A DNA stretch of 64,000 bases, taken from Escherichia coli. GTDB lineage: Bacteria; Pseudomonadota; Gammaproteobacteria; Enterobacterales; Enterobacteriaceae. Each line of letters starts with the position of its first letter. Within the stretch, counting starts at the first letter, position 1. The notes under the pieces are model-generated. The model saw nothing but the letters and a program-made list of their open reading frames with translations. It was not told the origin of the DNA and did no database searches. Shown one piece after another: positions 46,569-49,021 of this stretch. A program made the translations under genes and the position numbers. The DNA lies in the NCBI RefSeq assembly GCF_044647545.1, contig NZ_CP172818.1, one strand, 5' to 3'.

Positions 46569-47405
46569 CGTAACTCTGGCCAGTACGCTTTGTTGGCCTC
46601 CAGCAACTCATCCAGAATAGCTTTGGCGACCGAGGCGCTCGGTACCGTTTTCGACAACGTAATCGCCTGCCACAGGTGCTGATATGAACGCTGTTCCCAG
46701 GCGTCCACGACCAGTTTTTCCACCGTCACTTGCTGACTCATTAACCCTTTCTGAAACTGCGGGATATCGCCGACCACCATTTCCCACAAAAAACAAAAAA
46801 AAAAAGTGGTTCAGGCCGTAGTAGCGCACGCGCATCTGTTTGCGATCTTGCAGCCCAACAATTTGCGCCATCCGGCTTTCAATACCGATTGGCATGTCAC
46901 AGATGTTGAGGATTTTCGCATTCGGGCGCAGACGACGCGTGGCTTCTGCGACAATGGCTGCCGGGTTGGAGTAGTTGAGCATCCAGGCATTTGGTGAATA
47001 TTTTTCCATATAATCCACCAGTTCCAGGACGCCGCCAATGGAACGCATGCCGTACGCTATTCCGCCGGGTCCGCAAGTTTCCTGACCAACAACGCCGTGG
47101 CGCAGCGGGATTTTTTCATCCAGTTCGCGCATCGGGTATTTGCCGACGCGGATGTGCGCCATGACAAAATCAACGTCGCTGAATGCCACTTCAGGATCGG
47201 TGGTGTAACTAAACGCAATGTCCGGCGCTTTTTCTTTAAGGATGACTTTACAGGCTTCGGCAATCACTTCCTGCCGCGCACCATCGTTATCATAAAATTT
47301 CAGTGCACGAAGCGGGAAACGGTCCTGATTCGCCAGGAGCATCAACACGATGCCTGGCGTAAAGGTGCTTCCACCGCCTGCGACAACCACTGAGAATTTG
47401 GTCAT
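46565..47405 (-). pseudogene. glvG: 6-phospho-alpha-glucosidase (GH4 family), truncated and frameshifted
   Basis: N-terminal GH4 region ([24 protein letters not shown]-binding) breaks at a homopolymer run at 46786-46803 and resumes in another frame; total span about 280 codons versus about 440 for intact GH4 enzymes. Confidence 0.8.
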
Positions 47406-49021
47406 TATACTGCCTCCGTAATGGCAACATTTTCTGCTGATTGATGAGAATTAATTAAGCTATCGAGCTGTTCACGCAGCTGGGATACATGCAAACCAAT
47501 GATCACCTGAATGGCATCGCCACTACGGAAGACGCCGTGCGCTCCCAGCTTTTTAAAGACTTCGTCATCCAGCGTTTGTGACATGTCATGCAGTGCAATA
47601 CGTAAACGCGTCGCGCAATTGTTGATGCTGGAGATATTGCCGACCCCGCCCAGGGCTTGCAGGATACCGGCAGCCTGATCCAGCTCTTTTTTTGGCTCTG
47701 CCGCGGTGGTTTGGCCTCGCGAGGCTTTGTATTCGGCTTTTGAGTAGAGTTTCACTTCCGCATCTTCACGTCCCGGCGTGCACATGTTGAATTGCAGAAT
47801 CAGGGTGCGGAAAACCACGAAGTACAGCAGGGTAAAGCACAACCCAATGGCGATTTGGGTCAGCATCATATCCGCGTGGTTGCTGAACATTGGGATCCAG
47901 TTTTGCGGTAAAACCTGGTCAATCAAACCACCGCCCATGTTGCCCACCACACCAAAGAGATACATTACGGTCGACATTGAGGCCGCCAGCACGGCGTGTA
48001 CCGCAAACAGCAACGGTGAAATGAACAGGAAGGTAAATTCCAGCGGTTCGGTAATTCCCACCAGCATGGCGGTTAAGGTTGCGGGGATCAGCAAGCCCGC
48101 CACTTTTACCCGATTTTCCGGTGCGGCAGTGAAGTACATCGCTAAAGAAATGCCCACGGCACCAAAGATTTTTGAGTTACCGTGCAGGGCAAAACCGCCT
48201 TCCGGGAACAACGATTTCAGCGGCTCGGCGCTCAAACTGAACTCTTGCAGATGCTGCGCCCAGTACATCTGAATGCCGCCTTCAACAGCTGCCGGACCAA
48301 AGATAAACGGTCCGTAGATGAAGTGGTGTAAACCGGTTGGGATCAGAATACGTTCGAGGAAGGTGTAAACCCACACCCCAAGCGCACCCGCCGAACGCAG
48401 GAACGCTTGCAGAGATTCAATCCCCATTTGTACTTTTGGCCAGCCGAGCAACGTCAGCCAGGCGCAAGGGATCATCACCAGGAAGGCGATAATCACCACA
48501 TAAGACGTCCCCTGGAAAATGCCGAGAAAAACCGGCAGTTTTTTATCGAACAGACGGTTATGCAGCGCCGTCACAATGCCGGAAATGATAATTGCGCCGA
48601 TAATGCTGGTATCGAGGGTTTTAATCCCGGCCATCATTGTCAGACCGCTACCTGCCACCGCGTCCTGAGTGAAATCGACGCCGAAGTAGCTTCCCCAGGT
48701 CATTCCCATCGCGTTGATAAAATAGTTCCAGGTCAGGAAACTCACCATCACCGCCAGACAAGCTCGCCCCTGCGCTTGCTTAGCAAGGCCAATGGGTAAA
48801 CCGACAGCAAAAATCAGCGGCATATTACGGAATACCGTCCAACCGCCCTCTTCAATAATATGTACGATTTGCGCGAATAAACTGTTCGGATCGGTCAGTG
48901 ATTCCCCGACAAACATCGGGTTTTGCAGCAAGATGGCAAGACCCACCACAATCCCGGCGAAGGGAAACAGCAGCACTGGCGTGAACATCGCGCCGCCAAA
49001 GCGTTGAATTTGACTGAGCAT
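47405..49021 (-). CDS. glvC: PTS glucose-family EIICB component (IIC membrane domain fused to IIB domain)
   Basis: 538 codons from the ATG at 49021 ([13 protein letters not shown]); C-terminal IIB signature NCATRLR; track ORF 47405-49282 carries an implausible 87-codon N-terminal extension. Confidence 0.8.

Follow-up and report, generated by a model that had tools for sequence, protein, structure and literature searches.

An ordinary intact glvBC gene for an alpha-glucoside PTS transporter in Escherichia coli, beside a glvG break that is most likely a sequence artefact

The alpha-glucoside transporters AglA of Klebsiella pneumoniae and GlvC (MalP) of Bacillus subtilis are EIICB proteins without a IIA domain, each accompanied by a GH4 partner (AglB and GlvA, respectively), and the glv locus of E. 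coli follows the same plan. The GH4 partners of these two systems are NAD/Mn-dependent 6-phospho-alpha-glucosidases. Whereas the Bacillus regulator GlvR is of the RpiR type, the regulator at the E. coli locus is a GntR/HutC protein, YidP. The bgl, chb/cel and asc operons likewise combine a sugar PTS with a phospho-glycosidase, and K-12 leaves them unused in the laboratory; in bgl, chb and asc the structural genes are intact but silent, and are activated by mutation. Both AglA and Bacillus GlvC require the host EIIA-Glc (crr) when placed in E. coli, and the homologues in K-12 are considered cryptic or truncated (PMC5309279). A recent review names glvBC as the alpha-glucoside EIICB; in other papers K-12 glvC is considered a pseudogene and serves as a site of integration. 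As the first-pass annotation of the DNA studied here had stated, the K-12 records list two genes: in MG1655 (NC_000913.3) glvC (b3683, 368 aa) and glvB (b3682, 161 aa) are separate coding sequences next to a glvG pseudogene, and in K-12 derivatives the same 1,617-nt gene is flagged by PGAP as a pseudogene with an internal stop.

The window, by which we mean the whole 64,000-nt stretch of E. coli DNA that was analysed, contains glvBC together with its usual neighbours (Table 1). The gene had been described as a single continuous IIC-IIB frame of 538 residues carrying the signature NCATRLR, and both translation and the Pfam domains bear this out: the minus strand reads through 538 residues to a stop without a single internal stop codon, an event with a chance probability of ~(61/64)^538, or ~6e-12, in random sequence. 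The product has the same sequence as RefSeq WP_000952127.1, a protein annotated in FDAARGOS_497, 2013C-4225 and JCKP02. The start codon chosen in the first pass, ATG 49019-49021, is supported by the AAGAGGA motif ~8 nt 5' of it and by the TIGR02005 and PtsG alignments, both of which begin at residues 2-3 of the predicted protein. The frame stays open upstream as far as an ATG at 49282.

Table 1. Features of the glv locus in the window, in order of position.
Feature	Position	Strand	Basis or remark
yidL, AraC-family regulator, convergent with glvG	45675..46568	+	Pfam; annotation
glvG 3' remnant, last ~70 native codons	46565..46779	-	Glyco_hydro_4C, profile positions 166-211
A-rich filler TTTCCCACAAAAAACAAAAAAAAAAA, 26 nt, replacing 508 bp (codons 201-370) of glvG	46780..46805	+	
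glvG 5' part, codons 1-200, undamaged GH4	46806..47405	-	Pfam Glyco_hydro_4, E = 9e-67
TAATG overlap of glvBC stop and glvG start	47403..47407	-	GGAGG upstream
glvBC, 538-aa PTS EIICB, alpha-glucoside family	47405..49021	-	ORF and translation; TIGR02005
EIIB core, including NCATRLR	47576..47665	-	Pfam PTS_EIIB (PF00367), residues 453-482, E = 2e-12
Codon 369 of glvBC	47915..47917	-	CAG (Gln) in the window, TAG (amber) in K-12
EIIC core	47984..48994	-	Pfam PTS_EIIC (PF02378), residues 10-346, E = 3.7e-71
GITE motif, residues 322-325	48047..48058	-	Motif position
Intergenic region between glvBC and divergent yidP	49022..49316	.	AAGAGGA Shine-Dalgarno for glvBC; promoters presumed
yidP, GntR/HutC-type regulator with UTRA, divergent	49317..50033	+	Pfam GntR, UTRA; annotation

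Within the single GlvBC polypeptide an EIIC domain precedes an EIIB domain, as seen in the Pfam matches and in the alignment with PtsG structures, which covers residues 3-530 (E = 1e-57); no Pfam match to a IIA domain was obtained in GlvBC or in the other genes of the locus. The EIIC chain of PtsG (9lgt_A, 382 residues) aligns to residues 3-420 and a hydrophobic segment occurs at residues 393-403; by this alignment the membrane domain extends to approximately residue 420, past the Pfam core. The NCATRLR motif of the IIB domain occupies residues 468-474, and its cysteine, Cys469 (codon 47615-47617), aligns with the active-site cysteine of ...DACITRLR... in the solved E. coli PtsG IIB domains. 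The IIC domain further carries GITE, a motif conserved at the sugar site of EIIC domains of the Glc family.

GlvBC was assigned to the alpha-glucoside-specific PTS IIBC family of NCBIfam, TIGR02005 (Glc family, TC 4.A.1), on the strength of a 959.2-bit match of residues 2-523 to model positions 1-524 (cut-off 607.3). It falls well below the equivalog cut-offs for PtsG (TIGR02002, 316 against 592) and MalX (TIGR02004, 277 against 632), and its score with the NCBIfam NagE model is also far under the cut-off. GlvBC thus has the superfamily and the IIC-IIB order in common with PtsG and MalX, and shares with the PtsG structures the IIB cysteine and the GITE motif, but represents a subfamily distinct from both that is linked to a phospho-alpha-glucosidase. 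In the window, the linked GH4 6-phospho-alpha-glucosidase gene, glvG, is adjacent to and overlaps glvBC, although it is interrupted. In kind, GlvBC would be an orthologue of AglA from Klebsiella and of GlvC/MalP from Bacillus; it is a known gene, and its family is well characterised.

The stop codon of glvBC and the start codon of glvG overlap in TAATG with GGAGG upstream, which suggests that the two genes are translationally coupled. The divergently encoded YidP is a candidate regulator of the operon, while on the other side the 3' end of yidL overlaps the glvG stop by 4 nt. A crude, uninformative scan upstream of glvBC yielded no match to a sigma-70 consensus promoter. Since the locus contains no IIA domain or gene, the EIIA would have to be supplied from elsewhere, most likely by Crr (EIIA-Glc), and the phosphoryl group would pass from PEP through EI and HPr to this EIIA, from there to Cys469 of the IIB domain, and on to the 6-OH of an alpha-glucoside that sits in the IIC domain with its GITE motif. 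The resulting 6-phospho-alpha-glucoside would be split by the GH4 enzyme GlvG, co-transcribed and translationally coupled with the transporter, into glucose-6-phosphate and the aglycone. That GlvBC takes up and phosphorylates alpha-glucosides in a manner dependent on PEP and EIIA-Glc is inferred from the AglA and GlvC experiments cited in PMC5309279; the substrate range, use of Crr and expression of the E. coli protein are presumed.

The K-12 locus shares with the window its position, the 1,617-nt length of the transporter gene and the neighbours yidL, glvG and yidP. Alignment to the MG1655 reference junction, the check proposed in the first pass, places a TAG at codon 369 in MG1655 where the window has CAG, so that the stop is absent here and the window gene falls outside the K-12-type split glvC/glvB pseudogenes. 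The two alleles differ at 18 nucleotides, of which only two change the protein, namely residue 238 (Pro in the window, Gln in K-12) and codon 369. The K-12 amber falls within the IIC membrane domain, ahead of its last hydrophobic segment and off any domain boundary. Given this location, with the PtsG alignment running to residue 420 and the hydrophobic segment downstream of the amber, K-12 'GlvB', which begins at Met378, is a TM-linker-IIB fragment rather than a natural subunit.

The distribution of the two codons was surveyed in 5,426 complete E. coli genomes with 30-mer queries, each of which seeds only where the codon-369 base matches: the CAG form was found in 3,904 genomes and the TAG form in 348. 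All 40 of the TAG genomes sampled were of K-12 type, ~4.5-4.8 Mb in size (MG1655, DH1, MC4100, C600, J53, O16:H48 and similar). Counting any match at the glvG junction region, the locus is present in 4,274 of the 5,426 genomes, while in ~1,150 (~21%) it is absent save for the 3' end of yidL. The continuous glvBC frame is therefore normal for the species, and the mutated form is that of K-12; the codon-369 amber is private to the K-12 lineage, which accounts for its absence from the window. As the continuous frame is the norm, its intactness is nothing special to the source strain.

In the closest genomes the intact glvG gene, of 1,323 nt, codes for 440 aa with both GH4 domains (Pfam), 392/439 residues (89%) being identical to the solved 6-phospho-alpha-glucosidase 6DUX, and the protein is strongly similar to 1U8X, the maltose-6'-phosphate glucosidase of B. 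subtilis. K-12 glvG lacks the 508 bp comprising codons 201-370, which lie between AGTGGTTC direct repeats, and the K-12 locus carries two lesions, the amber at codon 369 and the 508-bp glvG deletion. The clean K-12-type glvG junction (...GACCACCAGTGGTTCAGG...) is present in 2,612 of the 5,426 genomes, corresponding to loss of glvG in ~61% of those with the locus. All 12 sampled non-K-12 deletion genomes retain an intact PTS gene (PGAP; 538 codons by translation), and by subtraction ~2,260 genomes, about half of those with the locus, combine an intact transporter with a deleted glvG. The locus occurs without the deletion junction in ~1,660 genomes, and glvG is intact in every one of these that was sampled. 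The most frequent state in E. coli is that of a broken glvG next to an intact transporter, a polymorphism already present in the annotations.

The first-pass annotation had viewed the arrangement in the window as that of a classic cryptic operon. An intact transporter next to a truncated glvG is indeed common, but the label itself does not hold, because in glv a structural gene has been destroyed rather than silenced. Unlike in bgl, chb and asc, it is the glv structural genes themselves that K-12 has lost, with glvG disrupted in ~2,600 genomes and interrupted in the window as given.

It is possible, though rather doubtful, that glvBC is intact merely because it has not yet been hit, in an operon that is silent or decaying and with a transporter that has no present function. 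Such decay would agree with the loss of glvG from ~61% of the locus-bearing genomes, the absence of the whole locus from ~21%, and the loss of both genes in K-12, where they are termed cryptic or non-functional (PMC5309279), as well as with the failure of the crude scan to find a consensus promoter, but it sits less easily with the intact catalytic motifs of GlvBC and with the ~1,660 genomes lacking the K-12-type junction, of which those sampled all retain an intact glvG beside glvBC. Polymorphism data bear on the same question. In glvBC, nearly all differences between the window allele and the others are synonymous (pN/pS 0-0.04), and among deletion-type alleles 22 synonymous and six non-synonymous polymorphisms were counted. 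The dead glvG remnant, in which two deep haplotypes occur, has nine synonymous and two non-synonymous polymorphisms. The synonymous excess was consequently dropped as proof of present-day selection on glvBC, since the dead remnant matches it (9 to 2); its similar pattern, which is also what a decaying operon would display, indicates that the glvBC polymorphism reflects old or recombined haplotypes. Among the deletion genomes, three of the 12 glvG remnants, which are shorter than glvBC, share an extra nonsense codon, while glvBC is full-length in all 12 (0/12 broken), which speaks against simple decay and gives a weak hint that glvBC is retained after glvG loss. That selection keeps GlvBC functional in the >2,000 genomes without GlvG, possibly with another partner hydrolase or in a sensor role, is nevertheless improbable.

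The glvG lesion of the window differs from that of K-12. In the DNA as given, the glucosidase gene is represented by a 265-aa and a 74-aa ORF, the 3' remnant being out of frame with the 5' part, and the lesion is one of several degenerate A-rich patches that look artefactual. The junction holds the 26-nt filler, and position 46726 is T, in contrast to the linked C of the K-12-like L002, and the window allele therefore does not belong to the K-12-type glvG deletion. The flanks of the filler match genomes with intact glvG at 100% identity and represent a haplotype otherwise seen only with the intact gene; the 30 best-ranked exact matches all carry it intact, while the best flank match among genomes with the K-12-type junction is 97/98 and none is exact. 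No alignment spans the filler in any of the 5,426 complete E. coli genomes, it was likewise not found in the GTDB representative genomes or the JGI metagenomes, and no second copy with up to three mismatches exists within the window. Similarly, the exact sequence of the 265-aa glvG product has no record. The idea that the filler is what is left of the missing 508 bp was rejected, as its local alignment to that segment is no better than for shuffled sequence (489/500 shuffles scoring as high or higher). As a post hoc and weak observation, TTTCCCAC corresponds to a G-less form of TTGTGCCCGAC, located 16 nt into the missing segment.

Two larger degenerate stretches were located in the window by a homopolymer scan, at ~25180-25990 and ~34900-36740, with runs of up to A24 and G16 and a GC content down to 11%. 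Alignment to FDAARGOS_497 identifies both as degraded copies of real sequence, in which G is lost first, bases are then replaced by their neighbours, and the sequence finally drifts towards poly-A. The decay proceeds from left to right on the plus strand of the window, independent of gene orientation; in the first patch identity to FDAARGOS_497 runs through 100, 97, 86, 95, 75, 68, 70, 75 and 67% and then returns abruptly to 100%. The three patches, including the filler, start and end exactly at breaks in the K-12 alignment (25179/25990, 34903/36738 and 46779/46805) and correspond to FDAARGOS-type DNA that K-12 lacks, namely a toxin-antitoxin pair, a uhpA-ilvN island and the 508 bp of glvG. 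Two further FDAARGOS_497 islands, of 6.7 kb (at 15016/15017) and 18 kb (at 23857/23901), are missing from the window altogether, with clean junctions and flanks that are 99.9-100% identical. The filler is G-free and runs down to poly-A before an abrupt recovery at the next base shared with K-12; its signature is that of the larger patches in miniature, although the shrinkage from 508 bp to 26 in glvG greatly exceeds that of the other two. The patches could have arisen through a reference-guided consensus, polishing or other processing.

Because the filler is unique, lies on an intact-glvG haplotype and resembles the patches at the other K-12 breakpoints, the glvG break is probably an artefact of the sequence, and the source strain, to judge by its haplotype, probably has a complete glvBC-glvG operon, as its closest relatives do. 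The competing explanation, that the same 508 bp were deleted independently in a lineage with the intact haplotype and replaced by an untemplated A-rich filler of 26 nt, is unlikely. The lesion is present in the window as given, its two ends fall at the AGTGGTTC direct repeats, which would make a credible hotspot for deletion, and glvG loss is common in the species (2,612 genomes); a deletion between direct repeats leaves no filler, however, and a real lesion would explain neither the uniqueness of the filler across all the collections searched, nor the composition and left-to-right decay it has in common with two larger patches that are not biological (A24 runs, 11% GC), nor the position of every patch at a K-12 structural breakpoint. 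Were the lesion genuine, the strain would have an orphan transporter and the species would have lost glvG on two or more occasions at one repeat-flanked site, which would suggest that selection disfavours the hydrolase and favours the transporter. We place at about 85% the probability of the reading as a whole, in which glvBC is an ordinary, intact gene for an alpha-glucoside EIICB and the glvG break in the window is most likely artefactual.

The product name that PGAP assigns, 'PTS sugar transporter subunit IIB', goes back to the division of the gene in K-12. It derives from NF007255, a 161-position model that matches GlvBC at residues 378-538, exactly as K-12 GlvB does, and since this model is built on the K-12 GlvB fragment the name has been carried over from K-12. 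It is next to inconceivable that K-12 has the same continuous frame merely labelled as two genes, for although the naming is confused, with the whole 538-aa protein called after a GlvB-based model, codon 369 reads TAG in MG1655 and its derivatives but CAG in the window, and PGAP reports the internal stop. The identical continuous reference frame that would have reduced the matter to annotation is thus not present in MG1655, and the CAG-to-TAG change makes the glvC/glvB difference a real sequence difference.

The most useful by-product of the analysis is a warning about degenerate, apparently artefactual sequence in the window, which affects every site where its DNA has no counterpart in K-12; findings that rest on the degenerate sites, including the 'disrupted glucosidase', are not trustworthy without the original reads. 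The intact glvBC is itself of little biological significance here, being a known gene and an ordinary allele. For the species, K-12 is an atypical reference at the glv locus: the K-12 annotation, with its glvC 'pseudogene' safe-harbour and its 'subunit IIB', misdescribes the gene in other strains, and most E. coli encode a full-length alpha-glucoside EIICB.

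The interval between uhpA and ilvN, which holds a 3.3-kb island in the closely related E. coli genome FDAARGOS_497 and a 75-bp spacer in K-12, contains degenerating sequence in the window. The decay is progressive, with G's dropping out first and runs of up to A24 appearing later, while the GC content falls to 11%, and it ends sharply, with regular sequence resuming at the 3' end of ilvN. This patch does not look biological. The degraded toxin-antitoxin insert between nepI and yicN, which is absent from K-12, contains homopolymer runs of G16, A12 and C9, and its identity to FDAARGOS_497 drops from left to right from 100% to 67% before returning to 100% at 25990.

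Two islands of FDAARGOS_497 are missing from the window at clean junctions, namely a 6.7-kb fructose-type PTS/aldolase island (15016/15017) and an 18-kb T3SS-remnant/eilA/iatC island (23857/23901). The flanks of both are 99.9-100% identical to FDAARGOS_497, and the alignment of the window to K-12, which was compared at the latter junction only, is continuous across 23857/23901. Like FDAARGOS_497, the window lacks the K-12 gene yidI (42254-42303), and its short yidH-yidJ spacer has lost 3 nt and gained additional A's relative to FDAARGOS_497. While positions 36738-56000 are nearly completely identical to FDAARGOS_497, about 45 substitutions cluster in 56000-62600, a pattern that either a recombination tract or another closest relative could account for. 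The GC-rich hairpin GGGCGGAGATGATCTCCGCCC, likely a terminator, differs from FDAARGOS_497 by two substitutions and a neighbouring 9-nt gap, which shortens the right arm of this candidate terminator.

Degenerate and variant features of the window and of retrieved glv loci
Feature	Location	Context
RelE/ParE-HTH toxin-antitoxin insert, degraded copy	window 25180-25990	between nepI and yicN
Degenerating sequence, ~1.8 kb	window 34900-36740	between uhpA and ilvN
GC-rich hairpin	window 62975-62990	between yidB and gyrB
glvG remnant with extra nonsense codon	L010	TD225-C4
glvG remnant with extra nonsense codon	L013	JCKP02
glvG remnant with extra nonsense codon	L015	UID2309220004

The full 538-aa EIICB encoded at 47405-49021 is labelled 'PTS sugar transporter subunit IIB' by PGAP because NCBIfam NF007255 is modelled on the 161-aa GlvB fragment of K-12, and this name is misleading in all non-K-12 genomes. 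In approximately 1,150 of the 5,426 complete E. coli genomes, glvG and glvBC are entirely missing together with the beginning of yidP, and just the final 136 nt of yidL remain from the 3-kb query.

The K-12-type 508-bp glvG deletion, the junction of which occurs in 2,612 genomes, is bounded by AGTGGTTC direct repeats, located at 1868-1879 and 2376-2387 in a locus with intact glvG (L001), with imperfect homology extending past them on either side. These repeats flank the segment replaced by 46780-46805 in the window. Three of the twelve deletion-type genomes sampled have in common an extra nonsense codon (CAG to TAG) in what remains of the 3' part of glvG. EC20-72C-1 (L011) carries an IS1 insertion in yidL. 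No deletion-type genome is an exact match to the flanks of the window, the best reaching 97/98. This fits a linked variant, which would suggest that the K-12-type glvG deletion has a single origin.
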